Source: Patellaria atrata CBS 101060 (taxonomy: Eukaryota). Taken from it: DNA of 48,642 bases. Under the pieces are notes generated by a model that saw nothing but the letters and a program-made list of their open reading frames with translations, had not been told where the DNA came from and searched no databases. How positions within the stretch are numbered: position 1 is the first letter of the stretch; the number at the start of each line of letters is the position of its first letter. The DNA is taken from NCBI GenBank assembly GCA_010093705.1, contig MU006127.1, forward strand, positions 1-48,642. Reading direction: 5' to 3'. Below, piece after piece: positions 3,901 to 41,758 of this stretch. Position numbers and translations under genes: made by a program.

Positions 3901-4604
3901 ATACTAATGTCAACCTCAAACAACTAGCCGCAGATACTCCCTTGTATTCCGGTTCGGATTTGAAAAATCTCTGCGTTGCTGCAGCTCTTGCATGCGTAAA
4001 AGAGGAGAACACTGCCGCTGTCCCTCTCGATAAAAACTATTCTGAAAGGAAGACAGACTTTTCTCAACTTTCTTACGAAGCTCACACAACTAATACTAAG
4101 AACAAAAGGAACCAGGAAGAAATTCTGCGTATAGTATCTGGTGGAGCAATTGAGGATCTCTTGAAAGATGGATCTCACATATCTGCCTCTAAGATTGAGG
4201 AACTTGAACGAGAGAGACACATGCTTTTACAAAATAACATGCATGATCTCGTCCGAGCTTTGTGGCCTGAACGCCAACTCCCTGCCCAACTGGTCAGTAA
4301 TTTGCAAGCCGACACATCTAGGAAACCGGACGAAGACAGTCTAAAGGAAGAGAAGAAAATTTCTTTCGCTACCGAGTCATCGTTCCTGTTACCCAAGCGA
4401 AGAGTTCTCTCGAAGCGTCATTTTGACAAGGCTTTGAAAGAGATCAGTGCCAGTGTCAGCGGAGATATGGGAAGTTTGCGCCAAATGAAGAAATTCGATG
4501 AGCAATATGGCGACCGTAAAGGTAGAAAGAAGAGGGATAATATAGGATTCGGTGGGTTTGATCAAGGAACTGAGGAGGACAGAGCAAGAGTAAGGGGGAA
4601 GTGA
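921..4604 (+). CDS. Large fungal AAA+ ATPase (Msp1/ATAD1/spastin-like C-terminal AAA domain plus a degenerate N-terminal AAA-like region), possibly mitochondrial
   Basis: Single uninterrupted ORF; first ATG at 921 (the ORF track starts at a GTG, 891). Walker A GPPGTGKT, pore loop KYVGEGEK, Walker B VFIDEAD, SRH STNRPFDLDDAVIRRLPRR, lid YSGSDLKNLC. The Arg-rich, acid-poor N-terminus resembles a mitochondrial presequence. Confidence 0.85.
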   Translation: MHTAIRGAKWSAIRYSAKFRADRRYAQETRQFHWTLKRLEGKPNLPSDTPISDSQDTEQDGSQKSGADMVTASTTEGGAKKVGTQTLVSPWRRSSRYKRVKEINPFQIPDWFLEQNVKLREGLTSFPGLERPYILSLEIKDAQTNESLLRIPIHHGKGGMVNYLHELDVQRRRSEAFAEAKFIRPVFNDAEQPDSLRVAQFGPEEQIHHKLSGFQKNKFLTILGDDLRRVLSEADQERDTPYYKDNTWCRHGDIRDIPEIDPRLYGEIEATIVGSLLSGSSATTGEYHSFPHSKANLLLQSAQDGSISLIDSLITQIASKHGADIIELDSQHIAELAGDYLGDGLKPERQSIRNFSYDVYESEEELNAEEDDDAPQPWLGLTDLVESMKRNGIPGFINGSRIGTAHEPGSNTLHKGPSIQQRSIAIDWDSRKLSTLLDTLLDAHILKRSQLEESRRCKAQPPLYPDVDVNEQGSPLAELHLKAFTEGSADNSSKGRYLSLRVDKAAPRSSAHSTTADRTIILLKDMMELIASPHGSIIVDKLADAVAEKRRAGHNIMIIGTTASSTLMPELSVDCIDEIQAQDDENSLFRTIFVFFGRSVPQVKDFLPKLGYSMQGWYNPSDDIYVRAHRHRNMEINVRHIKNMLKQFHQNTQGLDGSNCDLMLPSTVYFACEPYYTEQDMQFIGLKLDDTHSISPFEVKVLSFPEVHRLVLTAIGVHRLSNSKSSINGLHITTAAMLIRQSDWAKKIWVRNNSKRADETRHDDEHSSLSDSELHENQGKKEKSEYNKYERRLLLGVIDASKINTTFKDVHVSQETIEALETLTSLYFIRPDAFKYGVLASGKIPGVLLYGPPGTGKTLLAKALAKESGAKVLEISAGEINDKYVGEGEKNVKAMFSLARKLSPCVVFIDEADSLLHTRSGDRGNGRREVINQFLKEWDGMNDSSVFIMASTNRPFDLDDAVIRRLPRRLLVDLPQESDREKILQIHLKNELLDTNVNLKQLAADTPLYSGSDLKNLCVAAALACVKEENTAAVPLDKNYSERKTDFSQLSYEAHTTNTKNKRNQEEILRIVSGGAIEDLLKDGSHISASKIEELERERHMLLQNNMHDLVRALWPERQLPAQLVSNLQADTSRKPDEDSLKEEKKISFATESSFLLPKRRVLSKRHFDKALKEISASVSGDMGSLRQMKKFDEQYGDRKGRKKRDNIGFGGFDQGTEEDRARVRGK

Positions 4605-18400: not shown

Positions 18401-21400
18401 TATCGACATTGTTAGAAGTGTTCGACGGTGTTTGATCTAGCTGTTCTTTATCTTCCACATCCTTGTAAGCGAGTAACTCGCAAAGGAGATAATGGATGAC
18501 ACCATCAGGATTCTCCACAACCGGGTGTTTGAGATCTCCATGCTTTGGTTTATCTTCTTGTTCTGTCTTTTGCTCTGTAGATGGCTTAGCCTCATCCGCT
18601 TCGTTACCAGTGCTTATAACACCTGTCCCATCGGCAGATTCGACGCGCTGCTGCAAATTTGAATCATCAATCTCAGTATCCTTTTTCTTCAATGCAAGTG
18701 TTTGGGGTCGCTGGTTAGGATCATAGCGCGGGATCTCAAGTTTCTCGTTCGTGACCTCGACAAAAATGTCAGGAGAGCGAAGCACTAAATGATACATTTG
18801 TCGAATGTAGCTCGATGTGTCTATGGAACGACGCTGTTGCTGCTCAAACATAATCTGCACCTCGGTGCGCATAATATGACGAAGGGTATCATCATCTTCG
18901 ACAATATGTCTCAATATGAGCATGAAAGAGCTTTGAAGCCGCTCGGTTGTACTTCCGGCAAGCTGTTTGATCATCAGGAAGAGCCTCTGGATATTCCGTT
19001 TCTCACCAAACCGGGATGATATTTGTCTGTTACGGGTGAGAATGACAAGGACACGAACAATTGAGAGAGCGAGGGATGCATCTTTTCCAATTCGAGGTAA
19101 TACTTCGACTACGGCGTCAAAAAGCTGAAGCTTTTCCTCCTGAGAGATCACAGATTCAGGAACATCAATTGCAGATGTATCCTCCAGTAGCACTTCATTG
19201 GTAGGGGGGGGAATCCAATGGATTTGTTGAGGTTGCACATCTTCCGCTAATAGACGCTCCACGATGAGCAGTACGTGTCCTATCCATGGCGATGAGGTCT
19301 CCGGTTTATCGCTTGAGGTCACCCGGATAAAACTGATTAAAGAACCAAAGGAATCTTTCAGTTGCTCCAACGCAGCTTCATAGAATGGTTTATTCTGAAT
19401 TATAAGAGCCAATAAATGAGCGTATGATGATATTTTCTTGCTATCCGGATTGGTGTCTTCGTCTACCTGCAGGGAGATCAGGGACTGTACTAAGGTCTCT
19501 CCAATGTCGGATCGCATGCTCGCAGAATCTGAAGCCTTGCTAACCGCCGCGGTAATGAGATCAGTGAGCTCGAAAGTCACATTATCATGCACATTAAGAA
19601 CGTCAAGCGCTCGCTCGATCAAATTCGATCGGATCTGAGATCGCTGTGCATCCAAGTCGTCAACTGTAATCACATCTGAAAGCTTGCTCGCTTCTGTTCC
19701 GTTTTCGGCAATAGGTACAGCCTGGCGGTCCAGAAAACTGCCAGTATTGAGAAGCATAGTGAGAGCGTCACCATTATTGGAAATGAGAGGAATCGGAGGT
19801 ACGAAATCATCCGTGGACGCGTCGTCCGTAGATGGAGCTTGCTCATCGGAAGGCTGGAGGTCTCTGGTTTGCGACGAAGTAGTTTCATCTGCTCCGAGAG
19901 CATCATCAGTGACTGGAGGCTGTGCCGTACGGACGTTGTTTGGACTTGAGTCGTTCAATCGTGATTGCATTGGAAGCATATTTTCAGGTATCGGGTTTCG
20001 TGGCAGTCCAGGTTCGCGCTTGTAAGCAACGCAGTAATCTCGAGCAGTATTCAGTGTGTCAGAGCATCGATACAATGCTTCCCTCGCAAGGTCTTCGGGG
20101 TAACCTTCATCTTTGAGCTTCTGTAAGTCCCCTTGGTTACGTAGTTTCCAAGTGCGCCATGTAGGCTTTGAGCGTTGAGGAACTTTGTCTGAAGATCGAT
20201 ATGCGCCTTGCTCTGTGTCACTTTCTAGAACCGTTCGAAGTATCTCAATGGTAGTCTTTACGATGGATGTTGTAGCCTTGTCCATCAAAGGTGACTCCCA
20301 AAGCTTTTGTACGGGAGTGATAACGGCCATACGAAGTTCAACGAGAAATTGAGCTGGTATGAAGACCTCCGAACGATCTCGTTCCTGGTTAGTTCTGGAT
20401 TGCATTGCCTGGGTTTGGGTCGATTCATTGACAACCTTTGATGAAATTATCTGCGAGTAAAAACTCAGGATAATCTTAATACCTCCAAAAGCTAGATTTG
20501 TCAGTCCCTCTTTATCAGCTTCGGGCTGTTGATTATCATCTTGTGAATTGAGGGCTTCAGCCTTTTGGAAAAAGGTCTCAAGGATCTCCGATAATACTTC
20601 AAGTCCTCCCTGGGTTTTGAAGGCTTGTAAAACTAACGTCAATAGGCTAACTGGCTGAGAATAGCCACGTTCCCCTGAAAGTTCTGTTCGTATCAGCGGG
20701 GACTTGACAAACTCATTTTTAAGGGGAAACATACTATCTATCATAACTTGAGAAATCGAGCTTAAGGTGACAATTAAGTAGGCATAACGATCTCTGTCAG
20801 AAGCAGCATTCTTCGCTATCAAAAAACGAAGATGATCAAGAACTACCCGGGAGAGTTGTTCAGCCACAATTGTCGCATTCTGCTTCTGGTACGAGTCGCC
20901 GGTCCTCCGTAGTAGTAAGAGCTTCCCAAGAGCTTGGAAAAAAGGAGTGATGGTAGTTGGTACCTGGCTAAGGAGATAACGGAGAGTTCGGGTATTCTTG
21001 AATTGGGCTGAGGATTTGTCAACGTCCGAAGTGGCAGATGGTTGCATTGCAGTCGAACTATTTCCACCTGAGGACGGTTGAGTGTTCTCTGAGCCTAGTG
21101 GGTCAGTTTCATCTGCAGCTGACAAAGAAATTCCGAGCACATTGTCAGCTTCTTCCGTGCCAAAGCCAAAAGGTCGCCGGATCCTCGTTGCACTCTCCCA
21201 GTTGGGGGACATACTCCGTTGTAGTAGAATCTCCTCCCATACACATCGTCGCTGAAGCTGCCCTAAGCTCTCAATGAGCCGAGCATACAAGTCCGCTAGA
21301 TTAACCTGAGTGAACAGGTTTTGATGGGACCGGTGAGTGAAAGCTTGGTGCTGAAAAGTGTGAGCTAGCGCTTGACAGAGAGTGTGGACTGTCACGAGAG

Positions 21401-24400
21401 CTTTGACAAAAGTAGTGCCCTTATCCACAATCCTGCGAGCCGACTCATTCAACTGATCGTAATTAACCCCGTTAGTGAACATAGAGAAGAAAGCAGACTC
21501 CTCGTTGTGGTTGAACACAGAATCTAGGTGATCCAAAGCGTTCTGCGCCCGCTTTATAATCAATGGTAAAGCAAGTTGTGGCTTTTGTTCGACTAGCATT
21601 GAGATGACTCGACTGATTTCATCCCCAGGGCCATTGACCTGATCTTGAAAATCGTACGGTAGACATGGTAAAGATGCGTAACCGAGTAGATCCTCAAGCC
21701 CACCAGCCTCTATAAAGGAGGAACAAAGGTTGTTTGAAAAGAATCCCCCTAAAAATCGACAGACTACGTTAATATACTGCACGGTTGTAGGGGATCCTTC
21801 GGCTGATTCAGTCTCAACCACTTCATCAATTATCACCTGGGACTCTATCAGAGGATTACTGAGGGTCGATGAATCTGCGTCTTGCATGGTCACATCCTTA
21901 GGATCATACTTCTCAGAAGATTCCATTTGAAGTCGCTTTTCCTTGTGGATTGGGCCTTCCAGACCGCTCAATGAAGATCGACCGCCGGCGACACAAACAA
22001 TACCGTCGCTCTTTTGATACCACAACTTTGCCCCGACACCTTGGTTAATAGCTTTAGAAAAGCACAGACTGCCGACACGTTGGATCATTGTACGGACAGC
22101 GCGCAAGATCGATGATTTGAGCTCAGGATGATGTCTCACCAACTCATCGAAGGAGCCGCCTAACGCGTTTGGTCCATCGAGCTCTTGTTCCAAAATCTTG
22201 ACGTGATCAGGGCTCTCGAAGATCTCAAAGAAACTGGCCAGTGCACCAGAGTCCTTGAATAGGCGCATACCGGCAGTGTTCAAGCAAATTGCACCGAAAG
22301 CTTGAGGAATAACGCTCATAGTTTCTCCATTAGGGAGTATACCACGAGCCAAATCCCGAGATGAACCTGGGTCAGAATCACTGGGTTGCTGGTCATAGCT
22401 CACGGTCGCAGCTTCTCCGGCGCTACGCATTTCGCCATCATTAGTGTCCAAACTCATATTCTGTTCGGAGGTTGATTCCTCCATGTTGGATATCGACTTC
22501 TGAGTTACCGCTTCCAGAAAGGCTGTGCTGAGTCCAGCTTCGGCAATAACGGCATAACTTGTTGGTTCATTATGTATGAAATTGCTAAGTATGGCTACTG
22601 ACGAGCTCCAGACATTTGAGCCAAATATCCTAGCGTTACTGAGAACGATGCGAAGGGCCTTAAGAAGCTGTGGCGAATCGATTAGATTTCGCAAGAGCCG
22701 GTCGAAATTTCCCCCACTGTGAGACATCATATGGATCATGAACTTGAAGAGCCATCGGAGTGTCTGCTGCTGATGATAGGGAATCTGGTAGTCCGTGAGC
22801 TGGGTCTTGTATTCATCGGGCATGCCTTGACTAGCTTGGGCGCGAGAATGCGAAGTCTCGACCTCGAATGCGGTCAGATCAGCGACGATGTCAAGACCCT
22901 TCGCATTAACCAGAGATTGGAAAGCGTCCTTGATATTGAAGATATGGAGATCCAGAAAATTTAGAACCTTAGGATATGTTTGCTCTGCTTTACTAGTCCG
23001 GAATTTGAGAATCTCAATTAAGATATCGATCAACCCTGCCGAAATCATAGCCTCCCCTGTGCGCTGAGGTGAGTTGGGGAGACTGTTGAGTAAAGAGAAC
23101 AAAGCTTCTCTCCAATCATCCTTGTTATTGATATCCGCATGATCACCGGCGTTTTCGTTATCATTCTCCAGTTCCGCAACAGCTTTACGAAGAACGTAAA
23201 ATAAAACACCATGATTGACATTGACACTAAGCGCAGCACACACATCAAGCATTCTTGACTTGTGCTTGAGCAAGGCGTCCAAGGTTGTGAGTGCTAAAGC
23301 CTGGACGTTTCGGGAAACGGTAGAATTGCTATTGCCGGGAGGATGAACCAACTCAGCAAGTTGGTAAGCAAGTTGAAACCGCCGTGGTTCCTCGGAGTCC
23401 TGTTGCAAGATCTTCGTTCGAAAGGTTTCTTCGCCATATATATACGCAAGATTTGATATAGCAAGCAATCGGATAGAAACGAGATCTTCTCTGGTTGGTG
23501 CTCCTGAAGTTAAAGCTTGTGCACTCCGTATCCTATGCAGTAATTCATACCTGGAAGTGGTCGGGACCTGAGAGATATATGACGCCACTAACTCATAAAC
23601 TGGAGTGCTAAGAATCATTTCGGGTGTTATCTCGAGGGATTTCGGACCAGCAGATCGCGCATTATCAGATCCCTTCGCTGTCGCTGAGGGCGGAGTATTC
23701 GGAGATTCATTTAACGAGGAACGACCTTGGCGTGATAATTGATGTGGGCTAAGGTTTGAGGTGCGGCGAACAGGGGTCGGTGTCGTCGGGAAAAAATTGT
23801 CAGGTCCAGTCTGGGAACCTGATCCAATTGTAGAATCCGCTAGCGTAGATTCATAATAGGATAACTGGACATTACCAAAGTCAGCCCAAACGGTGTCTGG
23901 GTAGACCTTCTCCTTGACTAATGAAACTAGGTCAGTTGGACGGATTGGGTCTTGCAAACCACCTGCAGACATGTGCGTCACTTTGTCTTTCCCTTTACCA
24001 AGAGGAGTGGCGCCGGAGGGATTAACAACTGAGGCCTTACTGAATGGAGATGCCAGTTTCTGGACATTATCCAAGTTGATGTTGTAGTGATTAGCCAGCA
24101 GAATTGATGGAACATGCGTAGTTGTCATACGATTCCGTTGACCGTGATATCGTTGCGCAAGTCTTAAGGTCAGACGAAGTGTTGCGTTCAACAGAGAGAG
24201 TGACGTTGTATTGAGGAGATCATTAAGGTGGCTGCTGCTGGAATACAAACTTCGGTTCCCACAATTTTCGTATAGGATCTTGGTAAAAGAAAGAATACTC
24301 TCGACAAGGTCTCTATCTCCTTCCTCTTGGAATCCGAGTTTCATCAAGATATCCAGAGAAACGAATTCATTCGAACCAGTACCGTTGTGATCACCATCGC

Positions 24401-24727
24401 CTTTCTGTAAAAGCTTCCTGCTGAAGGGTTGGGCTTGAGGGCCGCTATTCAGTCCATATTCGATGTTGAACAGCTCAAGTATATGATCAAACCTATTGAG
24501 AACGGGAATCCAATGATACATATCGCCCCGAGGAAAAGGCCATCTCCGAGGGAATGACGATAAATGTGATGGTAATTGGTGTAGAGGAATCTCAAGCGCG
24601 AATTGAATAAACTCAGCTAGGGCGGGAGACTAAAGATGTAAGCATTGAAACGTAAGCTGGAATTCTGATAGCACGATACCAAAGTAGCCTCATGCCTTGA
24701 TGTGGCAGTTTTCTTGATTTTCCCCAT
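12434..24727 (-). CDS. TOM1: HECT-domain E3 ubiquitin ligase Tom1/HUWE1; exons 24727-24680, 24629-20735, 20683-12980, 12930-12586, 12528-12434
   Basis: About 4,000 aa. Starts MGKIKK...[22 protein letters not shown]-like segment, long acidic tract, UBM-like repeats ([23 protein letters not shown]). HECT domain with [27 protein letters not shown], catalytic LPSSHTCFN, and C-terminus QLDLPEY...GSEYFGFA* (stop 12434-12436). Confidence 0.97.
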
Positions 24728-25750
24728 CGTGACAAGATTCACAAATCAACTCCTTCCACCAACTCTAGATGTTGCGGCCAGCTAGAAACGATTTGTTGTC
24801 CGCATGTGATGGGCCAACTGGAGATGTAGAGCGTCAAACTGGGCCGTCTGGGAATGGGGGGTGGTGTCCAATACGAAATTTAGTTGGTGGGGCAAAGAGT
24901 GCGGCAGAAGCTGAAGAGGAGCTCTACTTAGCTGATAGTAGAAGGTTAGGTGATTGAATCGTGCCTTGATTGGATTCAAAAGCTGCGATTTATGAAAGAC
25001 ATGCGTAAATTTGAAAACGACTAAGAGGTCAACGGTGCAGGCGCTTTCCCTAGGTCGTATATGAAGAAGTGGAATTTAGGCGGAGCTTGCAGCTTGGGTA
25101 TAAAGAGTGAGAAGTTTTAGGTATGTGTGCGATGTAGGAAAGAAAGAAGTGGCGATGGTGGGTGTGAGGTCGTTCAAGAATAAGTTCGCGGTTGACAAGG
25201 TCAACTCAGAAGCTTGAGAAACATTGCCGCGAGCGCCAAGCATCGCCGTTAGGCAATCGTCATTCTCACTCCGCTAATAACCCGTACATTTCAACCAGAA
25301 CACGACTCTTTCACATAAGTCGATATTTCTACGTTATAGAGTAGTAATGTTGTTACATATTGGTTACTATTGATTCAAAAAAGAATATTTCCAGCACATG
25401 AACGAGGTGCCGCTCGAAGGAAAGAGCCCAAAGATTTGGAGGTTTTCCCCTTAGGTGCTTCTACATTATCAGTTGAATGATTTGCGGATATATAATAAGC
25501 TATCTAGACATCTCCGACTGACGGTTCTCATATTGCTTCCTGAAAAGAGATCCAGAATTACCAGTTTAACCCTGAGTAACAGCATGCCCGATACCAAACT
25601 TCCAGGATATAGTTATGCATCGACAACACACCGTGAACTAGATAATAGCCTATCATTCGGAGATAATATGACGCTTCGCCCACATCTTCTATGAAGAAGC
25701 TGCCGGGATAATGGTTGATCTGAAAGAGTGGCAATGTTTTCCCACAAAAC

Positions 25751-26128
25751 TCAAAGTGAGGAAGATCCATTAACTGGATGTCCATTGCTCTTCGCGGATG
25801 CTTCCTCTTCAGCCAGTCGCAATGTCTCCTCTAGAACAAGTAGATCTCTTTCCATAAGTTCGGCCCAGTTCTGCGCATCCCCAATCTCATTGAGTCGCTT
25901 GGTGCTTGTATCTACAAGCTTTGTCCACTGCGCAGTCTGCTTTGCTAACGCCGCAGTCTGTTTCGCCAGCTCCTTCTCTTGTTTCGCAATTGCTGCAGAA
26001 TTCGAATGAAGGTCGGAGGCTCTGGTACGAATTTCGGCGTCTACTGAGTGACCAACTGAGGAGAGGGATGCGATGACCGCAGCGCGAGCTTCGGCTGTGC
26101 GCTGGGTGCTATTGTTGTCGGAGGGCAT
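25751..26128 (-). CDS. BLOC-1/BORC subunit 1 (GCN5L1/BLOC1S1 family)
   Basis: 125-aa coiled-coil protein with the family signature LNEIGDAQNWAELMERDLLVLEETL; intronless. Confidence 0.85.
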   Translation of the reverse strand: MPSDNNSTQRTAEARAAVIASLSSVGHSVDAEIRTRASDLHSNSAAIAKQEKELAKQTAALAKQTAQWTKLVDTSTKRLNEIGDAQNWAELMERDLLVLEETLRLAEEEASAKSNGHPVNGSSSL

Positions 26129-27647: not shown

Positions 27648-29250
27648 ATGAAATCTTTATACTATATCACCTTCGCAGCTGCTGCTTCAGCCCAACAACT
27701 CGCATGGGCACAATGCGGGGGGCAAGGTTGGAGTGGCTCTAATAGTTGTGTTTCTGGCTATACGTGTGTTTCTCAGAATGACTATTACTTCCAATGCGTT
27801 CCAGGGGAAGCTGGTAAGTTCCACTCACAGAATTAGAGATCCCACTTTTGACACGCTCTTAGCAACAGCTCCAGCAACTGGCTCTACAGCTTCGCCTCCA
27901 GCTAGTGTAGCTGACTCGTTTTCCGCGACAAGCGGGACAAAGTTCGTTGTAGATGGGGTCGGTGAATCTATTTTCCTTTACCCAACCTAGGCGTTTGGCC
28001 TCAACAGCTTACTTTTGCCTTTAAAAAAAAACTATCCCTATTATGATCATCCACCAGTTATCCATGTAACTTTGATGCGGCCAATACATTCCTAAGAGGC
28101 AACAAAGATAGGTATGTTTAACTTACTGACAGAGTCGTAGAAAACCGGTTACTTCGCCGGAACAAACTCATATTGGATCGCCTTCCTTATGAATAATGCG
28201 GACATTGATCTTGTAATGGATCATCTGAAACAATCTGGACTTAAGATCTTGCGTGTATGGGGTTTTAACGATGTAAGTCCATCTTTTTACGCATGAGTCT
28301 CCTCCATATCTTAACACAACGTAGGTCACCAGCGTTCCCGGGAGCAACACTGTCTGGTTCCAGTCATTCGTTTCCGGCCAAAGTCCCCAAATCAATACTG
28401 GTGCCAATGGCCTTCAGCGCCTCGATTACGTCGTGAAGAGTGCTGAAGCACGAGGCATAAAGCTGATCATTAACTTTGTCAACTACTGGGACGACTATGG
28501 AGGCATGTCCGCTTATACCAGGGTTTTTGGCGGTACCAAAGACAACTGGTACACCAACACTCGAGCTCAAGACGCATACAGGAACTATATCAAGACTGTC
28601 GTAAACCGATACATTAACTCTCCAGCTGTCTTCGCCTGGGAACTTGCCAACGAGCCGCGTTGCAAGGGCTGTGCCACGTCCGTCCTCACCAAGTGGGCAT
28701 CAGACACCAGCGCGTACATCAAGAGTCTTGATTCAAAGCATATGGTGACTCTAGGCGACGAGGGTTTCGGTCCTGATCCTGCGGGCGATGGTAGCTACCC
28801 TTACCAGACTAGCGAGGGCTCGGACTGGAGAGAGAACCTCAAGATTAAGACTCTCGACTTCGGCACGTTTCACTTGTATCCCGACTCTTGTAAGTGTCCT
28901 GTCTCTTCTATCCCATAGTATCCAAACTCTAACATCTTCAAGGGGGCACCAACCATGAATGGGGCAACCGCTGGATTAAGACTCATGGCGATGCTTGTCG
29001 TGCTGCTGGTAAGCCTTGCATGCTTGAGGAATATGGTAGTACCCCTGAGAACCAGCACTGCCCGGTCGAGAGCAAGTGGCAGACTACTTCCTTGAATAAT
29101 GCGGGCATGGGTGCGGATCTGTTCTGGCAGTTGGGCGATACGTTGAGCACGGGGCAGACGCACAATGATGGCCATACAAAGTACTATGGCTCAAGTGATT
29201 GGACGTGTTTGGTTACGAATCATATCAAGGCGATTCCGGCTCCGGCATGA
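27648..29250 (+). CDS. Secreted endo-1,4-beta-mannanase, GH5 subfamily 7, with N-terminal CBM1; exons 27648-27813, 27863-27957, 28141-28272, 28325-28889, 28943-29250
   Basis: Signal peptide, CBM1 ([16 protein letters not shown]...NDYYFQC), Thr/Ala/Pro linker, [27 protein letters not shown], acid/base [14 protein letters not shown], nucleophile LEEYG, FWQLG. All introns are GT-AG and frame-consistent. Confidence 0.93.
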
Positions 29251-30093: not shown

Positions 30094-31071
30094 TCACCTC
30101 TTAATAACCCTCTCCGAAAAAAACTCATTGATGGGCTCCATATAATACTCCTTCAAGTCCTCCACTTTCGGCACCTCATCATCCTTACTATAGAAATCAT
30201 ACGGATTAAACTCGTTGACCGCCTCCAACATGTTAGCATCTTTCTCACTCATCATTCACTGATTTGCCCCCTGGGCATGCCACGGATAGAACGAATGATA
30301 CCCAATCATCGCCAGCGCTTCCTCCGGTAACGTTGACTGATTCCTAACGACATGATACAGATACTCATTATGGCCCCAGCTCAGCATAACGTTATCGAGT
30401 CCGCAGACGGGGGTGTAGATACCGTACTCGGTCCCGTATATGGGGTGGTCGTGATCGGTGTTCCCGATAAAAGCCTCGGGGTAAATGATCCGGTCATCGA
30501 ATTTACAACCGACTGGGAAAGTATCTCCGACTATGTCCCATTGACGTTCGGCGTCGAAGAAGAACAGCAGTTTCCCTTGGTCGTGGATGAGTCCAGTAAG
30601 CTGCATCCAACGTGGCTTGTCATCGCGGCGGATGGCCTCGACGGTCTGTAGAAGGTGTTCGATCTGCGAGAGTGAAGTGTATGGGTCTAAATTGTCGATA
30701 AGGATGTTGAGTTTCTCGATGGCCTCCCAGACGGTCATAGTGACGCGGATCCTGGAATGGAAGCTATTCCGAGCTTTGAGGTTATACGCTATTGTTTGTT
30801 TTGTGTGTTATTCGAGGTAGAAGTCCTTAACACATTCATAAGCCTCCTGATACTGGCGAAACTGAGTCTTGTCTTTCTTGAAATGGAACTCGGTCGGGTT
30901 ACAGATGTCTATGTTCCCTTTACCAACATCACCTTTCTTAGTCCTCAGGGCGGCGTGGAGAAGGTAAACTTCGTCGATATCGTCGGACGTCGCTTCGAGA
31001 GCTTACCTATCCTGGTTGCTCTTGACAGCTTCAAGGACATCAGGGATCTCGTGAACGGGTCCTGATACCAT
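30094..31071 (-). pseudogene. MIOX: myo-inositol oxygenase (MIOX) pseudogene, intronless, 326 codons
   Basis: One reading frame from ATG 31071 to TGA 30094 translates as MIOX throughout (KDKTQFRQY, QTIAYNLKARN, MTVWEAIEKLN, SQIEHLLQ, GLIHDxGK, VGDTFPVGC, SWGHxEY, YHSFYPWH, FNPYDFYSK). It has in-frame stops at 31005-31003 (TAA), 30810-30808 (TAA) and 30258-30256 (TGA), and altered motifs (SDPD->LDPY, HDLGK->HDQGK, GHDEY->GHNEY). Confidence 0.92.
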
Positions 31072-32153
31072 TGCGGATACGAAAAATAAAAAGGAAAGAA
31101 GTAAAGACGGTAAAGGGAATCACGGTTCGAGTACCTCAAACGAACCTATGATAGAATAGTAGAGTAGAAGACGTAATGTAGTCCGATCGTATGGAAGATG
31201 AATTGAACTGATGTCAACATCAGTGTTTACTTTACCTTTAGGAGTCCACAACCTGAACCGGAATGCTCAGTAAGGAAATCCTACCGCGCTCAGAGATGTG
31301 CTCGTCTGACGACCATAATGCATCACCTTTTGGTTCGCCGAAATCCAACTCAAAAGGATTGTTATGAAGAGACTCCACATTCTCTGACGAGACGTACGTT
31401 GTCTTGAAACTAGCGACATTCACATGTGCGGAGTTGACGTGAACCCCAAAGTTATTTTCCGTTTAGGATGCGTTTCCAAATCCCGTAAAAAAAAAATCTA
31501 AGGTCTAATCTCTTTATCAACCTTAGACTTTTAGTAGCGATCACCACGGCGACTAGTCGCATACCAATATCTCTTCAGGCCGATGCTGTTGATGACGTTT
31601 AGTTGTGAGGTTGCAGAAATGGAATCTTATCCTAAAATACTTCAGAGGGGATGGACGGGCAAATGTCGGTGTATTTCTTCTTTCCTCATCTTGTCCTAGG
31701 CGTATAGGCTAGAGCGAATCTGGACGACATAGAAAACATCCACCAGTCTTCATCAGATGGCAGATGATGACAGAGGAATGCGATCTATTGGAGTGGCCGA
31801 CGAAACAATGCCGGCTTTATAAACATCTCAGAGCTTCTTCTCCTTCTCAAAACCGCCTTGGGTACCATCGATATGACCCTAGTTAGGATCTCAGCGGGCC
31901 AACGGGCACTCTTCCAGATGAGGGGTCAAAAGTCCATCAATGATGGCGGGGGAGCTTCGATTGCGGCAGAATAGCAGCATACAGTGGGACATCAATTTGT
32001 GTCAGCGAGAAACCATCCCAACTCCGGTAAGGTAAGATAGAAGGAGAGAAATAAGGTCAAGGGCTCTTCCAAAACTTTCTTTCCATGAATACCTCTCTAG
32101 AAACCTTCATTCTTAAATCTACTCCCGCTTCAATTTTTGACCCAAATCTCGAC
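31072..32153. promoter_or_regulatory. Putative bidirectional promoter between the MIOX pseudogene and the GAR1-like reductase
   Basis: Head-to-head arrangement about 1.08 kb apart. CreA-type SYGGRG matches (GCGGAG about 31428, GCGGGG about 31946) and CCG/CGG-containing motifs near 31797-31815. Confidence 0.45.
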
Positions 32154-33189
32154 ATGGAGACTCGCATTCCTCTGAACAATGGGACTAGCATTCCCGCTCT
32201 GGGTCTAGGGACGTGGCAATCGGCAGCTGGTGAGGTGGAGAAGGCAGTAGCGCACGCGTTAAAAGTAGGATACAAGCACGTCGACGGTGCGTACTGCTAT
32301 GCGAATGAGGATGAGGTGGGTAAAGGGTTGAAGGAAGCATTCGACTCCGGAATCAAGAGAGAAGATATCTTTATCACGTCGAAGTTGTGGTGTACATACC
32401 ATACAAAAGTGGAGGAAGGACTGGATAAGAGTTTGAAGAGCTTGGGGGTTGACTATCTGGATCTGTTTTTGATGCATTGGCCTGTCCCCATGAATCCCAA
32501 CGGTATGAAACATACTGCTCAACCTAGTGTACAATAGATCTATAAATAAAGCACCCTAACCCACCCGCAGGAAACCATGACCGCTTTCCCACCCTACCCG
32601 ACGGCAAGCGCGACCTCGACCACAGCACAACGCATGTTGAGACCTGGAAACGGATGGAGAAGCTCCTCTCCACCGGGAAAGTAAAAGCTATTGGCGTCGC
32701 GAATTACAGCAAGCCATATCTAGAGGAACTCCTCGCCAAGGCCAATGTCATTCCCGCAGTTAACCAGATCGAGAACCACCCTTACCTACCGCAACAGGAA
32801 ATCGTGGATCTGTGTACAGACAAGGGAGTCCATGTGACCGCGTATAGCCCATTAGGTAGCACGGGGAGTCCGCTATTTGAAGAGGAGGGAGTTCAGAAAA
32901 TCGCGAAGAAGAATGGGGTTGAGGTTGGGACTGTACTTCTAAGTTGGCATGGTGAGTGGTACGAGATGAGGTTAAAATAATGTGGTGCTAATCTGAACAT
33001 TTAGTTGCTAGAGGACGGTCAGTCCTTGCGAAGTCCGTTAACCCGGACAGGATTGAGAAGAATAAAAAGATCATCAAGCTCGAAGAGGAAGACTTGAAAG
33101 CTTTGGAGGATATCCACAAGAATAAGGGGTTAAAGAGATATGTCTACCCTGCTTTTGGCGTACAATTTGGATTCCCAGACAAGTCGTAG
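32154..33189 (+). CDS. gar1: Aldo-keto reductase, GAR1-like D-galacturonate/D-glucuronate reductase; exons 32154-32502, 32571-32951, 33005-33189
   Basis: AKR catalytic tetrad (D-GAYCY, TSK, MHWP), AYSPLGS, LAKS. The segments GLGTWQS..GEV, DGAYCY.NEDEVG.GLKEAF, GNHD.FPTLPDGKRD and C-terminal KRYVYP.FG..FGFPDKS match my recollection of Trichoderma reesei GAR1; orthology was not computed. Intact. Confidence 0.85.
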
Positions 33190-33556
33190 TCGAAGAGATG
33201 GGAAAAGATTCTAGTGACTGCTGAGAGTCCTCAGAGTTTAAACTCGCAAAAGATAGATAGGGCTAGATAGATATGAAGAGTGACGACGAAACGCAACATG
33301 ATACGCAATGAATGATCCTAAAATCTATGGATATGCAAGCTTACTTTGACCCAGTCTAGTAGCACGAGAATTCCTGGCTAATAGGACTCTTGTCTCTAGG
33401 TATATCTCGACTTTGCTGTACACATCGTGGAAATCCTGAAACGGCCTTGGCTACACAGTACACCAGATTATGTATGGCGAGTGTACGGCAATTGAAGAGT
33501 CTGAAATCCGATATACGAGCGGATAGCTCATTCCAACACGACCGAACTCAAATCAC

Positions 33557-34389
33557 CTACCTTCCCATCCACCCTCCATCAACCGTCACTATCTCCCCAC
33601 TTAGGTATGCTGCTGCCTCACTCGCCAAAAATACCACAACCCCCTTAAAATCCTCCGGTCTGCCCCACCTCCCTTTTGGAATTCTCTCCAAAATGCTGTT
33701 CGCCCGCTTCTCGTCCTCTATTAACGCTGTATTCATCTCCGTTGCAATATATCCTGGCGCGATTGCATTGACCGCAATACCCTGGCCCGCCCACTCGTTT
33801 GATAATGCCTTCGTCAGCTGTGCGACTCCACCCTTAGATGCTGCATATGCTGGGACTGTGATTCCGCCTTGGAAAGAAAGCAGAGAAGCAACATTGATAA
33901 TGGCGCCACGACGACCTGACAGAGATGGAGGCTGGGATAACATGTGTGCACCGACATCCCGGCAGAGAGTGAATACAGCAGTGAGGTTTACGGTAAGTAC
34001 TTCATCCCAGGCGTCCGAGGGGAAGTGGGCAGCGGGAGAGCGGCGTTGGATCCCCGCGCAGTTGAGGAGGATAGAGATACGGTACGAGGAGAAGATCTGT
34101 AGGAGAAGCTCGGTGAGGGAGGGAGGAGCGGAAAGGTCTGCGATGAATATTGTTGCATTGCGGCCGAGCGATTCTACTTGCGATTTGGTTTCGGTATTGG
34201 CTGTGTCTCGCTATTCAGGGTTAGTATTTCAAGTTCAGTAATTTAGAATGTCAAACGGACCTGTATGAGAACGATGTCTGCACCGGCTTCGGCGAGTGCA
34301 ATTGCCATTGCTTGTCCAATTCCTCTTGTTCCTCCAGTCACGAGCGCTGTCTGTCCCTCTAAGGAGAACAATTGCTGTATTGACGCCAT
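33557..34389 (-). CDS. Short-chain dehydrogenase/reductase, KduD/IdnO (5-keto-aldonate reductase)-like; exons 34389-34261, 34210-33557
   Basis: [78 protein letters not shown]. Intron 34260-34211. Intact. The substrate is inferred from family resemblance only. Confidence 0.88.
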
Positions 34390-34858
34390 AGTTTTGGGTA
34401 TTGGTTTAAGGGTATCAAATTTGGTATCTGCTGTAGGAGATGAGAATCCGAAGCGCTCCTAGAGCTTCTTGTTTGAAGTAACAGTGCCATTGGAAAGACT
34501 GAGGCTAGAAATAGACGTACGTAGATTATGGAATGAAATGAGCTGGCGGACCGCCTAAAAGAGTAAGAGGGGCGTGGGGAAAATGGAACGGGACGTTTGG
34601 GCCAGTTCGATCGTTCCCCGATTGGGATTTATTCGGCCTACACACCGACTTCAGATGCCGGCAGGATGAGCATCAAATCTTCCATCTACACATGAAAGAC
34701 ATGGAAATGTTAGCGCTGAATCTGTTTCCTTTGGCTATGTACCGTTGGTACAGATTCTGTACTCATCAATGTTCTGTAGAAGATTAATTCAGTCCCTAAT
34801 CTATACAGATCATAAGTTTTAGACTAACTGATAATATTTTACTTTCTCCATATACGTT
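34390..34858. promoter_or_regulatory. Putative bidirectional promoter between the SDR and the Zn-dehydrogenase
   Basis: Head-to-head genes about 470 bp apart. Contains GGCGG-A-CCGCC (34545-34555) and TCGG-N8-CCGA (34633-34648). Confidence 0.55.
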
Positions 34859-36175
34859 ATGGCTGCAAGAGACCGCATAATCCGGGCCTCTGTACTTCAT
34901 GGCGCGAAAGATCTTAGAATTGTAAGCAGAACATAATATACTTTCACTCAATTTACTCATACTTATCTCAGGAAGAACGAAGTATCTCCGATCCCTCACC
35001 GCAAGAGGTCCAAGTAGCTGTGCGAGCAACAGGTTTGTGTGGATCCGACCTTCATTATTATAACCATTACCGTAATGGCGACATTGTTGTCCGGGAGCCG
35101 ATGTCCCTGGGTCATGAATCCGCTGGTGTAGTCACAGCCGTGGGTTCCGAGGTATCAAATCTGAAAGTTGGGGATAAAATAGCATTGGAGGTGGGTTTGC
35201 CATGCGGCAATTGCGAAAGATGTACAGAAGGGCGGTACAACATCTGCAAAGGGATGAATTTTAGGAGTAGTGCGAAAGCGTTTCCTCATGCTCAAGGGAC
35301 GTTGCAGGGGAGGATCAACCATCCTGCTGCATGGTGTCATAAGTGAGTATCGCCAGGTCCGTTATAGGATAATCTTAATTTATGTAATGTTAGGTTGCCA
35401 GAGCAAGTATCGTTAGACTTAGGAGCTATATTGGAACCTTTAAGTGTTGGAATCCATGCAACAAGACGAGCTCAGTTAGCAGCTGGTTCGACCGTCCTCG
35501 TCTTTGGCGCAGGTGCAGTAGGCCTACTAGTAGCGGCAATGGCGAAGATCTCAGGTGCAGGCACAGTGATAATTGCTGATATTGACGCTGGCCGTGTCGA
35601 GTTTGCAACACAGAATAGTTTCGCACATAGTGGTTTCATTGTCCCCATGAAAAGAGGGGAGACTGTGGAAGAGCAGTTGACGATTGCACAAGAGATAGCC
35701 GCGGAGATTGGTAAATTGAAAAAAAGTACAGATGAGCCTACAGGAGAGATGGATGCCGTATTTGAATGTACTGGTGTACCCTCATGCTTACAAGCATCTA
35801 TATATGTGAGTTTGGAGTTGGTATATGAAACAGTTATAATTAACGGAATCATAGGCAACCCGCCCTGGAGGGAAAGTAATGCTGATTGGTATGGGTACAC
35901 CCATTCAGACTCTTCCCATCTCTGCTGCCGCGCTTCGCGAGGTAGACCTCGTGGGAGTGTTCAGATATGCGAATACCTACTCCACCGGTATCGAAGTAGT
36001 ATCAAAGAGGGGGCCAGGTTATCCAAACTTCGCCAAGATTATCACACATAGGTTCAAAGGACTAGACAATGCTGTGGACGCATTCAACATGGCCGGTAAA
36101 ACCAAAGACGAGTCAGGAGAATTGGTATTAAAGGTCGTTTTAGAGATAGATGAAGAAGGCAGATCAAAACTTTAG
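34859..36175 (+). CDS. Zn-dependent medium-chain dehydrogenase, sorbitol/L-idonate 5-dehydrogenase family; exons 34859-34921, 34972-35342, 35394-35805, 35855-36175
   Basis: VLHGAKDLR, catalytic Zn GLCGSDLH and LGHESAG, structural Zn C-xx-C-xx-C-x7-C, GAGAVG Rossmann motif followed by ADID (NAD-type acidic residue), FECTG, GVFRYANTY. Three GT-AG introns, frame intact. Confidence 0.9.
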
Positions 36176-36819
36176 GTCCAACCATTATTCATACGAGATC
36201 AATTTCAAATATTATAATTACCGTCACTTCCTGGTAGCTTGATGATCCTCTCATTTTCTCTTCCTTTGTTCAGGCCCTGCTGATCGTACGCTACTTCAAA
36301 AAGAGTATCAGCTTAACCGTACAGTGGAAGGAAGAGATAGGATCAGTTAAAAATCCTCTTTATATACACGCCAACTGTACAATATTCAAGGATTGGCGAA
36401 TCTCCTCCTGTCTCCCGAAAGATATGACGTTCTATCTCTTTGGGAAAAATGAGTCCCGTAGAGGGTTCAATAGAGGAACGGGAACCTTACTTGAAGTAGC
36501 AATTCGTTTTCAGGGTCCACATCGGGTTCCAAAAAGAAAGTTACGTTGAAGGGACTTATTTTCCAGTTGCTAATTTGACAGATCATCTTCCGCAGTTCAA
36601 CCAAAGAGGAGAATCAACAAGTGCAGTTTAAATACTGACCTGTCAAATAGAATAATCGAACCCGTATATAACCCAGTTGACGAAACATCAATATCAGCCA
36701 AGCAGGTGCACCTCCAAAGAACTGAACGTGAGAAACCTTGGATCGTTGCAAGTCATCTCACCTTCGAACTACAGCGTGAGATAAGAAACTGCTATTTCAA
36801 AGTACGGTCAATTATCAAG

Positions 36820-37952
36820 ATGGCTCCGTGGAAGCTCAAAGTTGCTGCTTCAGGACTTGGACGCATGGCGCTCTCGTTATGCTCTCCATTTCCTCAACCG
36901 TACCCCACGTGCAGAGCTTGTTGCTGCATTCTTTCCAGATCCGAAGGAAATTGGTTGGGGTCGTCAACATCTTGAGCCTTACAAAGTAACGTTGTATATT
37001 AACTATGACGAGATGCCAAAACACGAGGGGTTGGAAGCTGTGGTGATCGCGACTGTCACTACCGTACATGCAGAGCAATCTATCAAGGCAATTGAGAAGG
37101 ACCTACATTTACTCTGTGAAAATCCTTTGAGCACTAGCGTCGAGATCATACGTGTCCCATTAGACAAACCCTCAGAGTTGGAGCAAAGATGACAAATCAT
37201 TGAGGATGGTAGTCCCAGCAAGTAGACGACGCGGTGAAGAAGAAACACTATTTGAAGGTCATGTGTGGCCTCTCACGTCGTTTCGATGCCAGTTATCGCG
37301 ACGCCTAGGAAAGGGTGGGTAACGGATCTATTGGACGACCATCTGTCTTCGGTTCACAGACGTGTGATTAATTAGACCCCAACGGATTCTCCGTCCAGTA
37401 GTCGTAATTTAGTGGAGGAATATTCGTGGGTTGTAATGTCCATGATATCGACCTCGTACTCTGGTTCTTCGGACAGGATGGTATTGTTAAGAGTGTCACC
37501 GGTATCGGTATTACAGCTGTTCAGCCCGAACTCAAGAAGTATGGAGATTTCGACATGGCGTTGGCCTCATCGAGTTTTGGGGCGGTAAGATCGCTTACAT
37601 CTACTCGAGTCGTTTGATGGCCGCTGGACAGCACGATACGACTGAGATCATAGAAACTGAAGGCAAACTTACAGTTAACGACCGTCCAGCTAGCTCTTTA
37701 GTCGAGATGCATGAAGCTTCGGGTGTAGGGAGGGGGATCTCGCAACACTACTATGGACGGTTCGAGCAGGCATTCGTGACGGAAGCTAATGAATTCGCGG
37801 CAGCATGCCTGGATAACACGGGGTTGCCCCTTAAGTTATCGGGAGCGGTACAGGCCATCAAGATCGGGTGTGCCTTACAGGAGAGCTTGAGGTCTGGGAA
37901 GAAGATCTCTTTCGATGAGACTGGAAACATTATCGAGGAGGCGAAGTTATAG
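36820..37952 (+). pseudogene. Gfo/Idh/MocA oxidoreductase (myo-inositol 2-dehydrogenase-like) pseudogene
   Basis: Reconstructs as KLKVAASGLGRM / RYALHFLNRTPRAELVAAF / LLCENPLS / VMCGLSRRFDASYRDA / SGGIFVGCNVHDIDL / YYGRFEQAFVTE. Lesions: +1 frameshift about 36868-36874, intron donor ATACGT instead of GT at 37148, stops at 37306, 37369, 37399 and 37405, -1 frameshift about 37555, CEKP motif changed to CENP. Confidence 0.9.
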
Positions 37953-38978
37953 AACTAGAGCTTTGCAATTCAGACAAGGTGAAGCGTGTGGGCTCTTACC
38001 CAAAAGTTCTCCCCAAAAGAAACCTATCAGGTTTCAAGTACAGATAATAGAGAAAGATGGATTTATAATTAATACTCCTGCCACTGATAGTAGTTTAGGG
38101 ATTGAAGGTTGAGGAGTTTGATAACAAGAGATGCATACTTCTACCTATGATCCACCTTACTTGTTCTCCCTTGACTTCAGTTTCAGTGTAGACCTTCATT
38201 AGCACCTTGTCCTACATGTCAATGACACGTCTATTTGTCTTTTGGCAGCTTCGATAGCTACCGTCGATCACCTGACAGCTTTGAGTCTTATGTGTTAGAA
38301 CATGAGACAACAGAGCCTGCTATCCCCCTCGAGGGTGTATGTGATATCTCATATCACTGCTTGCTAAAGGTCACGACTGATATTTTCGTGCTTAACGTAT
38401 TGCCATAATATTTTGAAATCCCTTTTCATTCAAATAAAAGATGAAGTGATAAGTTGTGTTGGTGTGGTACCGGCCTACTGGAACCAAGCTTCGCGATCAA
38501 CTCCGAGCATCTGCTTCGTGGACCTCTCCAGGCTCTCCAATCAAAAAGGGTAAAAAAGCACCACCTGCGTCGATAGGGCCTTGTTACATCTCTGCGAACC
38601 TTTTACCTACATCCTAAATCTCACTCGTGCACGGCACACTTGACCCTCTCAGTCATCCATTGTTCCATTCTTTTGGTGGGGACATCTAGCACATGTCTAC
38701 AATCCTTCGGGGTATTTTTCATCACCCCAGAATCCCTCCAAACTGGCCTCTGAATCATTTCTTATTCCTAACGCGAGACTTATCCCGAAAGCGTGGCTGT
38801 TCGGATAGAAGCCGGAAGGCAGCCCATTGTATATACCCTACCGGAGGCAATCGAACTCCAAACCTACCCAAACACTGCTTCTGACGGAACGGTCATCCTA
38901 TCATCCGAACGAGAGTTACAAGCTAAGAGTAAGCGCAAGCGGCGGGAGAAGCTCCAGCGGCTTCTTGATGAAGCAGAC

Positions 38979-41758
38979 ATGAAGTTCTCCCACAGCATCC
39001 AGTTTAATGCGGTCCCAGATTGGAGTACCCACTATATCGCATACAGTAATCTCAAAAAGCTGTAAGCTCTCCCGAGTTCACAGGCGCCGGCAACAGAGCC
39101 ATATGCTGATAATTTTGTCTCACTTAGAATATACTCACTCGAGAAGCAAATACATCAGAATGCTGGAACTGGTTCTACGGACGCCGAATCCTCACCTCTC
39201 CTTGATGGCTCCATCGATGACCCGGACAAGGTATTCACAAGCGCCTTAGATAACGAACTAGAAAAGATAAGCTCCTTTTATCAACTAAAGGAGCTTGAAA
39301 TCCTTGGAGAAGTAGACTCACTGCTGAAAGATGAAGAGGAGTATGAACATGAACAGGAGAGCGTGGAGATCGAACAGACACAGGGACCCCCTGGATCCCG
39401 TGGAATGAATAGGAGTGGAAGAGCGAGGACCGGCAGTATATTTGGAAACTTCGGTTTCAGACGGTCGAGCATGAGTAGATCCCGAGATCTAGAAGACGAT
39501 GGAGACAGCGATGACGATGATGACGAGCGTTCAGCTTTAACCAGATCAAAGATAAGAGAACGTCAATCGACATGGGACTCTCAGCATGACGAACTGCGGA
39601 ACTCCACTGGAAATGTTTCCAGGCGAAGAGAGAGCAATGCGGATGATTTTGTCGAACACTCCTTTGCCTCTTTATATGATACAGGTCTCACGTTGAAGAA
39701 GCGGATAGTTAGCCTATACGTCTCCTTATGCGAACTAAGGTCCTTCATCCAACTGAATAAGACGGGCTTCACCAAGGTGCTCAAGAAGTACGACAAGATC
39801 TTGGACCGGGATCTCAAATCATCTTACCTTAACGAAAAGGTCAATTCAGCGCAAGTGTTCCAGAAAAATACAATGAACCGTCTATCAGAGAAGCTGGAAA
39901 AGGTCGAACACGCTTATGCGAATGTCGTAACCAAGGGCGATATAGCGGAAGCAAAACGTGAACTACGATTACATCTTCGAGAACATGTAGTCTGGGAACG
40001 AAATACGGTTTGGAGGGAAATGATAGGTATTGAGAGAAAAGCGCAAGCTGCAAATATGGGTATCAAACAGACTGTGCTTGGGCATAGTATCGATCCGCGC
40101 GAAGCTGTCCTACAGGGAGATGACCCTCATCCTAACGTGAAAGAGATATCCACTCCTATCGGACGATATACGTGTCCGACCTGGTTACTGAGCCCTACAT
40201 TCTATACGCTCGTCGTAATACTGGCAATTTTCTTTATTCTCTTGTTCATACCGTTAGACCTTTCTCGAGAGCAACAAAACTGTTTGGCTATGGTAGTCTT
40301 CGTTAGTTTGCTATGGGCCACAGAGGTGAATTCTCATAAGCGTCCTCTTGCGGCTCTGACGACTAAGTATATTCACAGGCTATCCCTCTCTTCGTAACAT
40401 CAATGGCGGTACCATTTCTAGTCGTGGTCCTGCGCGTCGTAAGATCTGATCAGAAGCCGCACAATCGGCTGGACTCGAAGCGGGCCGCAAGCTACATTTT
40501 CGGAGCTATGTGGACTCCTGTGATAATGCTACTTTTAGGTGGTTTTACCATCGCTGCTGCGTTATCAAAATACAACATCGCTAAAATGATGGCAACGTTT
40601 GTCCTCAGCAAAGCAGGTACGAAACCAAGGACAGTGCTTCTCACCAGCATGTTCGTAGCCATGTTTGCCAGTATGTGGATTAGCAACGTTGCTGCTCCTG
40701 TGCTATGTTTCTCTATCATTCAGGTATATGTAAAAGTTCATACATTGTGTAGTACTCGTGCTAACCATGTTATAGCCAATCCTCCGCAACCTTCCAGCGG
40801 ATTCCAACATGTCTAAAGCTCTCCTCCTTGGCATTGCACTCTCTTCCAACATCGGTGGTGCAGCTTCCCCCATTGCTTCACCACAAAATCTTATTGCTCT
40901 CCAGAACATGGAACCTCAACCCGGTTGGGGTATCTGGTTCTTCATTGCGCTTCCAATCTGTATCATCTCAATCGTACTGATCTGGCTCCTACTCCTCGTA
41001 ACATTCAAACCAGGCCATAAAACCACGATTGTCCCTATCAGGCCAATGAAAGACAGATTTTCCGGAATTCAATGGTTTGTTAGCATAGTCACTGTAGCCA
41101 CTATTGTCTTGTGGTGCGTTTCACATCAGCTTGAGCCTGTCTTCGGAGATATGGGCGTCATAGCCATAATTCCTATTGTTCTTTTCTTTGGCACTGGGGT
41201 GCTCACAAAGGAAGACTTTAACAATTTCTTGTGGACTATCATCATCCTAGCAGCTGGCGGCTTGGCCCTAGGGAAGGCTGTCAATAGCTCGGGGTTGCTT
41301 CACACAATAGCGGGCAGTATCACAGCGAGTGTAGAAGGATACAGCCTTTATAGCGTCCTCCTCGTCTTTACGTCCCTGATCTTAGTTATCGCCACCTTTA
41401 TATCCCACACCGTTGCCGCTCTTATAGTACTACCTCTCGTACAGACAGTAGGTCAGGGTATGAGCGAGCCACATCCGAATCTACTGGTCATGGGTAGTGT
41501 GTTGATGTGTTCGGCGGCTATGGGGCTGCCGACCAGTGGATTTCCGAACATGAGTAAGTGCTATCTGATACTTATTCTTGGTGAAGATGTTTTTAGCTGA
41601 CAGGACTTCTAGCGGCTATAATGATGGAGGATTCTCAGACGGGCCAGAGATATCTTCAAGTCAAACATTTTATCACGAGAGGGGTACCCAGTTCGATCCT
41701 CACGTTTGTGGTTGTCATTTCTTTAGGCTATGGGCTCATGATTGCGGCCGGGCTGTAG
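38979..41758 (+). CDS. PHO91: SPX-domain low-affinity/vacuolar phosphate transporter (Pho91/Pho87/Pho90 family, SLC13/CitMHS fold); exons 38979-39061, 39128-40325, 40379-40723, 40776-41553, 41613-41758
   Basis: SPX start MKFSHSIQFNAVPDWSTHYIAYSNLKK, ELRSFIQLNKTGFTKVLKKYDK, LREHVVWERNTVWREMIG, LWATEAIPLFVTS, SMWISNVAAP, SNIGGAASPIASPQN, GLPTSGFPNM. The exact paralogue is uncertain. Confidence 0.9.

Follow-up and report, generated by a model that had tools for sequence, protein, structure and literature searches.

Among the described systems closest to the one reported here is the D-glucuronate pathway of Aspergillus niger (PMC4870679, PMC5306355, PMC5814732), which includes the uronate reductases GaaA/GarB, GluC, GluD, an L-idonate 5-dehydrogenase, GluE/IddA, and a reductase of 5-keto-D-gluconate, GluF/KgrA, with gluD and gluE forming the described cluster and garB and gluF located elsewhere. 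According to the supplement to PMC13158570, the gar, idd and kgr orthologues are dispersed in A. niger and have consecutive numbers in Neurospora crassa (NCU01906/01905/01904) and Trichoderma reesei (TrC1350W/1351C/1352W), and in its main text the linkage of the trio is not mentioned. The idn operon of Escherichia coli (IdnD, IdnO, IdnK) likewise takes L-idonate by way of 5-ketogluconate to gluconate. In this work we describe a cluster in which counterparts of the three fungal genes are accompanied by genes for a myo-inositol oxygenase (MIOX) and an inositol dehydrogenase (IDH)-like protein, located at positions 30094–37952 of contig MU006127.1 from Patellaria atrata CBS 101060 (Dothideomycetes); the whole analysed stretch of 48,642 nucleotides is hereafter called the window.

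The gene models and Pfam matches agree with the preliminary description of this DNA in the five families, their coordinates, order and strands, namely two head-to-head pairs plus one more gene, and all five loci were found, although two of them are pseudogenes, which that description had omitted. The MIOX locus (30094–31071, minus strand) is an intronless pseudogene of 325 codons with three in-frame stops, separated by a divergent intergenic region (31072–32153) from the intact gene of an aldo-keto reductase (AKR) resembling the uronate reductases GAR1 and GarB (32154–33189, plus strand; 304 aa; three exons, 32154–32502, 32571–32951 and 33005–33189, with GT-AG introns). The second pair consists of a KduD-like short-chain dehydrogenase/reductase (SDR) similar to the 5-keto-D-gluconate reductases GluF/KgrA (33557–34389, minus strand; 260 aa; two exons, 34261–34389 and 33557–34210, with a GT-AG intron) and a Zn-dependent medium-chain dehydrogenase similar to the L-idonate 5-dehydrogenases IddA/GluE (34859–36175, plus strand; 388 aa; four exons, GT-AG introns, C-terminal SKL), both intact and divided by a divergent intergenic region (34390–34858). 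The fifth member is a scyllo-IDH-like Gfo/Idh/MocA pseudogene, below referred to as Gfo (36820–37952, plus strand; PF01408/PF02894; C-terminal AKL). The SDR and the Zn-dehydrogenase are identical to the public P. atrata models P0001 and P0122, respectively. In contrast to A. niger, the Zn enzyme is paired here with a gluF-like gene, genes of the gluD type are absent, and the cluster also includes MIOX and an inositol-dehydrogenase-like gene, while the trio of N. crassa and T. reesei shares the three-gene core and differs in its order, AKR-ZnDH-SDR. In contrast to the idn operon, no kinase, transporter or regulator was seen in the cluster of the window, which would be entered from inositol or uronate and has an SDR nearer to KduD than to IdnO.

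The conservation of this linkage was assessed in fungal metagenomes. The Zn-dehydrogenase had 470 matches there, of which the 80 best were taken, so that the set is biased to close relatives; many of its loci are short. Of these 80 loci, 50 have the SDR beside or near the Zn gene, 24 the AKR, 21 MIOX and 18 Gfo, and all five genes are present in ten (L003, L007, L009, L012, L016, L023, L025, L030, L047 and L048). Seventeen loci have flanks of 5 kb or more on each side, and eight of these hold all five genes or, after near-identical pairs are merged, seven of 14 distinct loci; the other seven comprise one with four genes, one with three, one with the pair, one with a distant SDR and three with the Zn gene alone. 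Six different gene orders occur among the five-gene loci. The SDR and Zn genes are head-to-head in 39 of the 48 loci having at least 1.5 kb upstream, as are MIOX and the AKR in 13 of the 14 metagenome loci holding both. When the 22–44 kb part of the window was compared with the loci by tblastx, bins matching at least 17 loci were confined to 30.0–38.0 kb, with only single loci matched elsewhere, and the genes flanking the cluster in the window recur in no more than one of the 80 loci. In the Zn-enzyme tree the five-gene loci fall into four separate groups with 62–72% identity between groups.

Named genomes give a similar picture. The SDR and Zn gene have adjacent tags in all eight genomes with positional locus tags in both match lists, and in six of six (Neofusicoccum ribis, Plenodomus lingam, Bathelium, Bogoriella, Lignoscripta and Trapelia) the MIOX tag is at most three away from that of the SDR or the Zn gene. 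Judged by accession, five more genomes link MIOX to the pair (Saccharata, Xylona, Mytilinidion, Lophium and Decorospora) and two do not (Rhizodiscina, and Glonium, where the contig measures 6 kb), giving linkage of MIOX with the SDR and Zn genes in 11 of the 13 named genomes that could be tested. In Extremus, Gfo and MIOX are six tags apart; in Cladosporium halotolerans, Gfo and the SDR are two apart. The linkage goes far beyond chance and is conserved across lineages despite reordering; the co-localisation expected from the preliminary description was borne out by both sets of loci. The five genes make up a genuine catabolic cluster of known enzyme kinds that is conserved widely and seems not to have been described before, and that across several fungal classes links MIOX genetically to the idonate branch. 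The preliminary description knew of no report of such an arrangement, without excluding one, and no description of the five-gene cluster, or of the GAR1-IddA-KgrA trio as a cluster, was found by us in the open literature, subscription papers, theses and cluster databases being outside the search. AN5985 of Aspergillus nidulans, beside AN5986 (garB), is a candidate MIOX gene, and NRRL3_06932 of A. niger lies two genes from garB; the searches confirmed neither of these two genes as MIOX or IDH. Two fungal-type proteins, the Zn-dehydrogenase P0121 and the MIOX P0298, are labelled Quercus suber and Carpinus fangiana and are probably fungal contamination of plant assemblies.

Neither inositol-entry gene can be functional in P. 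atrata itself. The MIOX frame is interrupted at 31005–31003, 30810–30808 and 30258–30256 and its substrate motif is damaged, while Gfo carries four stops (37306, 37369, 37399 and 37405), two frameshifts of one base each (near 36870 and near 37553), an intron donor at 37148 reading AT where GT is expected, and changes of both the catalytic Lys and Asp. These lesions are not assembly consensus errors, because contigs re-assembled from two runs show zero differences or indels relative to the window over 27–42 kb, both runs coming from a single sample that is probably DNA of the sequenced genome itself and hence not independent of the strain. The extent of decay was estimated from columns invariant in all orthologues, for which 33 of the 80 loci were considered and those with more than 60% coverage of each protein retained. 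Of such columns 26 of 157 are changed in MIOX (16.6%; 17 orthologues; leave-one-out mean 1.1%) and 20 of 119 in Gfo (16.8%), compared with 7 of 102 in the SDR, 3 of 76 in the AKR and 1 of 104 in the Zn-dehydrogenase (1–7%), the leave-one-out means across the five proteins being 1–2%. Since the decay of the two is equal, it suggests that MIOX and Gfo were released from selection together. The dinucleotide indices gave no signature of repeat-induced point mutation (RIP) in either pseudogene. Public annotation passes over the MIOX stops in model P0241 (282 aa, "inositol oxygenase"), so that the pseudogene stands annotated as a gene. A working five-gene unit, as had been proposed, is therefore not possible in this species, both inositol-entry genes being dead, and P. 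atrata may be regarded as a natural knockout which is not expected to grow on myo-inositol unless another MIOX is present. In the intact SDR, 5 of 101 highly conserved positions are changed and four of these changes occur in none of 119 homologues; relaxed selection and a substrate shift after the loss of the inositol module are candidate readings.

Sequence comparison supports a GluF-like SDR and a substrate loop of the L-idonate dehydrogenase type in the Zn enzyme, the activities of both being predicted. For exon 2 of the Zn-dehydrogenase the best NCBIfam match is L-idonate 5-dehydrogenase, with a score below the cut-off, and its substrate loop, invariant in 27 orthologues, aligns without gaps to E. 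coli IdnD (6DKH) and with gaps to the four other chains shown; the best whole-protein PDB matches are a ketose reductase and sorbitol dehydrogenases. The SDR shares about 70% of its residues with proteins of Aspergillus brasiliensis, has KduD as its best NCBIfam match (below the cut-off on the exon tested), and ends with the same six residues as those encoded by the published gluF reverse primer. An Aspergillus-type locus (L079:7900-16151) carries a gluD-like gene (2-hydroxyacid dehydrogenase) head-to-head with a gluE-like gene, a second SDR, a Zn2Cys6 factor and, 4 kb from the pair, a gluF-like gene; it appears to be a different idonate cluster with the Zn2Cys6 factor as a candidate regulator. 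The gluD-linked Zn enzyme of this locus is only 46% identical to the cluster Zn-dehydrogenase and lies on a long branch in the tree, for which reason the cluster enzyme is only a candidate one-to-one orthologue of GluE; in the PMC13158570 supplement N. crassa has two co-orthologues of idd.

MIOX matches PF05153 with an E-value of 2.9e-84 (283 bits against a cut-off of 25) and is 60–68% identical to intact fungal MIOX proteins, and, in alignment with mouse MIOX (2HUO), the di-iron and substrate motifs of the family are canonical in 116–119 of 119 homologues per motif. The AKR has an intact reading frame and belongs to the expected fold family (PF00248). It is presumably a GAR1-type uronate reductase, judging from synteny with TrC1350W/NCU01906 and likeness in sequence, and among its 50%-representative and PDB matches there was no GAR1-named sequence.

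Gfo had been left without a role in the preliminary description; it resembles an inositol dehydrogenase of the scyllo type and bears a peroxisomal signal. Three intact orthologues score 246–253 bits against IolG (TIGR04380), not reaching the cut-off of 355; their best PDB matches are L. plantarum 3CEA, annotated as myo-inositol dehydrogenase, and the L. casei scyllo-IDH (E-values 1e-47 to 1e-49), followed by much weaker matches to Bacillus subtilis IolG (1e-17) and L. casei myo-IDH (1e-13). They retain the catalytic Lys/Asp/His, and the YGY motif that marks myo/chiro-IDHs is absent. At the marker position in motif V our alignment places Gln, most of them having His as the next residue, whereas PMC9603128 gives His/Arg/Lys as typical of scyllo-IDH group ii and allows exceptions. 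A fold search with a predicted model (pLDDT 68) gave a top Z of 29.6, compared with 27–29 for myo-IDHs. Intact Gfo orthologues share the fold and catalytic residues with the L. casei scyllo-IDH IDH2 (4N54, 4MKX), among their nearest solved sequences, and with IolG, but differ from them in having 26–28% structural identity, a score below the family cut-off, a tail of the peroxisomal targeting signal 1 (PTS1) type, and a linkage to MIOX with no iol dehydratase operon. The family forms a large ascomycete cluster in Atlas. A peroxisomal myo-inositol dehydrogenase of Entamoeba histolytica, described in PMC8629394, is likewise a Gfo/Idh protein with PTS1, active on myo- and scyllo-inositol, although of a separate lineage. 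By pattern matching, PTS1-like C-termini were found in 15 of 15 Gfo proteins (13 canonical) and 19 of 70 Zn enzymes (27 of 70 with the relaxed pattern), and in none of the 40 SDR, 21 MIOX and 22 AKR sequences, so Gfo and the Zn-dehydrogenase are probably peroxisomal and the other three proteins cytosolic. An identity of Gfo with GluC was considered and rejected, GluC being a 2-hydroxyacid dehydrogenase.

How filamentous fungi use inositol after the MIOX step is not settled, and the glucuronate pathway still lacks an enzyme for the conversion of gulonate to 2-ketogulonate. On the basis of homology and gene linkage, we lean towards the reading that this is an old Pezizomycotina cluster which would route inositols via the glucuronate (idonate) pathway into the pentose phosphate pathway. 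Gfo, judging by its fold and family, would interconvert inositol isomers through scyllo-inosose, supplying myo-inositol, whose ring is opened by MIOX to yield D-glucuronate, as is established for that family. The AKR, if orthologous to GAR1, for which the activity is established, would reduce D-glucuronate to L-gulonate, and the inversion at C2 giving L-idonate would be left to enzymes encoded elsewhere, as in A. niger, that is gulonate 2-oxidation followed by GluC/GluD. The Zn-dehydrogenase would then oxidise L-idonate to 5-keto-D-gluconate, the SDR in turn reducing this to D-gluconate, both activities having been demonstrated with GluE and GluF of A. niger. P. atrata would have lost its two inositol-entry genes, MIOX and Gfo, as one module, and would retain the uronate/aldonate trio for its further use on free glucuronate and galacturonate.

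Published work is consistent with this route in several respects. Induction by glucuronate is on record for trio orthologues, with T. reesei GAR1 about 8-fold and TrC1351C about 11-fold up relative to glucose and A. nidulans AN5986 about 30-fold up. In L. procerum, according to PMC9788770, MIOX is required for myo- and D-chiro-inositol and inositols are interconverted, and deletion of gluF in A. niger leads to accumulation of 5-ketogluconate. A number of observations weigh against it. A motif scan detected a GluC/GluD-type gene in a single locus of the 80, L079, which is outside the five-gene set, and nowhere in the window; this leaves a hole in the middle of the route, with the gulonate-to-idonate step not covered by the five genes. 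The Aspergillus-type GluE-like gene of L079 may be a paralogue of the cluster Zn-dehydrogenase, the Km of GluE for L-idonate is poor, at 30.9 mM, and glucuronate does not induce the gar1 homologue of A. niger (89/59/130 fragments per kilobase per million). Furthermore, N. crassa has the trio and does not grow on glucuronate, and the trio is also induced by galacturonate and rhamnose.

It is less probable, though worth considering, that the five genes form a complete, so far undescribed inositol pathway which skips the gulonate-to-idonate conversion and is partly peroxisomal. This could take one of three forms. An unlikely route of this sort would have Gfo convert myo- into scyllo-inositol, MIOX cleave the latter to L-iduronate, and the AKR form L-idonate for the Zn enzyme and SDR to turn into D-gluconate. 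No step would then be lacking, L-iduronate being the C5 epimer of D-glucuronate, and from the established structures the stereochemistry closes exactly; the closest solved relatives of Gfo (3CEA and the L. casei scyllo-IDH, far above myo-IDHs by sequence), the absent YGY marker, the failure of the motif scan to find GluC/GluD-type genes in five-gene loci, and the inability of N. crassa, which keeps the trio, to use glucuronate would all fit. Nevertheless, the MIOX substrate motifs are canonical and give no sign of a shifted pocket, the lead of the modelled Gfo fold over myo-IDHs is small and its marker is Gln rather than His/Arg/Lys, and glucuronate induces the trio orthologues. Moreover, wild-type L. 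procerum cannot use scyllo-inositol according to PMC9788770. It is also improbable that the Zn enzyme oxidises L-gulonate, which differs from L-idonate at C2 only, at C5 to D-fructuronate and the SDR forms D-mannonate, making four consecutive steps with MIOX and the AKR. Zn-dependent L-gulonate 5-dehydrogenases of bacteria and the activity of KduD on fructuronate are precedents, fructuronate and mannonate were not in the GluF substrate panel, the cluster Zn enzyme is just 46% identical to the Aspergillus GluE type, and T. reesei has no gluC orthologue, yet its TrC1351C is induced by glucuronate. Conversely, GluF is inactive on the analogous D-tagaturonate, which was in the panel, A. niger requires gluC, and no conserved dehydratase was seen in related loci.

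If Gfo were instead the missing C2 oxidoreductase/epimerase of L-gulonate, passing L-idonate to the Zn enzyme in the peroxisome, the single unassigned step of the glucuronate pathway would be filled, and the PTS1-like ends of all 15 Gfo proteins and, under the relaxed pattern, 27 of 70 Zn enzymes would find an explanation; this is very unlikely, given that Gfo decayed along with MIOX while the trio stayed intact, has the fold and motifs of cyclitol dehydrogenases, and is missing from trio loci such as L040. The whole-protein PDB matches of the Zn enzyme to a ketose reductase and sorbitol dehydrogenases, together with the lowered growth of an N. crassa NCU01905 deletion on L-arabinose, might point to a loose polyol/cyclitol redox unit in which the Zn enzyme and the SDR act mainly on polyols and ketoses (L-iditol, L-sorbose, L-arabitol). 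We consider this quite unlikely, as the substrate loop fits IdnD, whereas polyol dehydrogenases are gapped by 3–4 residues there, the gluF deletion accumulates 5-ketogluconate, and deletion of iddA in A. niger leaves growth on sorbitol and galactitol unaffected. Finally, the genes might be side by side merely by descent with no selection for clustering, as the split cluster in A. niger, Rhizodiscina and possibly Glonium and the four of 14 distinct long loci without MIOX, AKR, Gfo or a head-to-head SDR could be taken to mean, but the six internal orders, the changing bystanders and the sharp edges at 30.0 and 38.0 kb make it most improbable. Under the favoured reading, routing through the idonate pathway, the cluster yields a short list of candidate enzymes and substrates and a likely role for an uncharacterised ascomycete Gfo family, and hints at a step in the peroxisome.

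With regard to regulation, no cluster-linked transporter or regulator was seen within the window, which has no match to Fungal_trans_2 (PF11951). In nine loci of one lineage (L007:878-2551, L047:12513-14413, L008, L009, L033, L034, L035, L046 and L048) a Fungal_trans_2 gene adjoins the cluster on either side and is a candidate regulator. An ATGCCG-containing 8-mer is present at 34640–34660 of the window and in related SDR/ZnDH promoters, in 6–8 of 26 against a shuffle maximum of 6; as the promoter loci are not independent, the best 8-mer (8 of 26) is a weak lead for a binding site. The MIOX/AKR promoters contained no 8-mer above shuffle, and no GaaR-type site was found in the two divergent promoters of the window. 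A secreted-looking protein with no Pfam match and CENP-S occur within the cluster in one lineage (L047:4337-6382 and nine other loci). These two, which sit in the gaps, and LeuRS, located beside clusters, were tried as members and rejected as lineage-bound bystanders.

The Rfam scan of the window gave no match. The remaining genes of the window are ordinary neighbours: an AAA ATPase (807–4604), a GH92 protein (5501–7723), a large HECT-type ligase (12972–24629), probably TOM1-like, a small coiled-coil protein (about 25750–26100), presumably BLOC-1-like, a GH5 protein with an N-terminal CBM1-like motif (about 27650–29250) and, on the other side of the cluster, an SPX phosphate transporter (about 38770–41700). 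The region from 44010 to the contig end at 48642 has a GC content of about 3% and a CpA/TpG depletion index of 0.08, and looks like a heavily RIP-mutated repeat.

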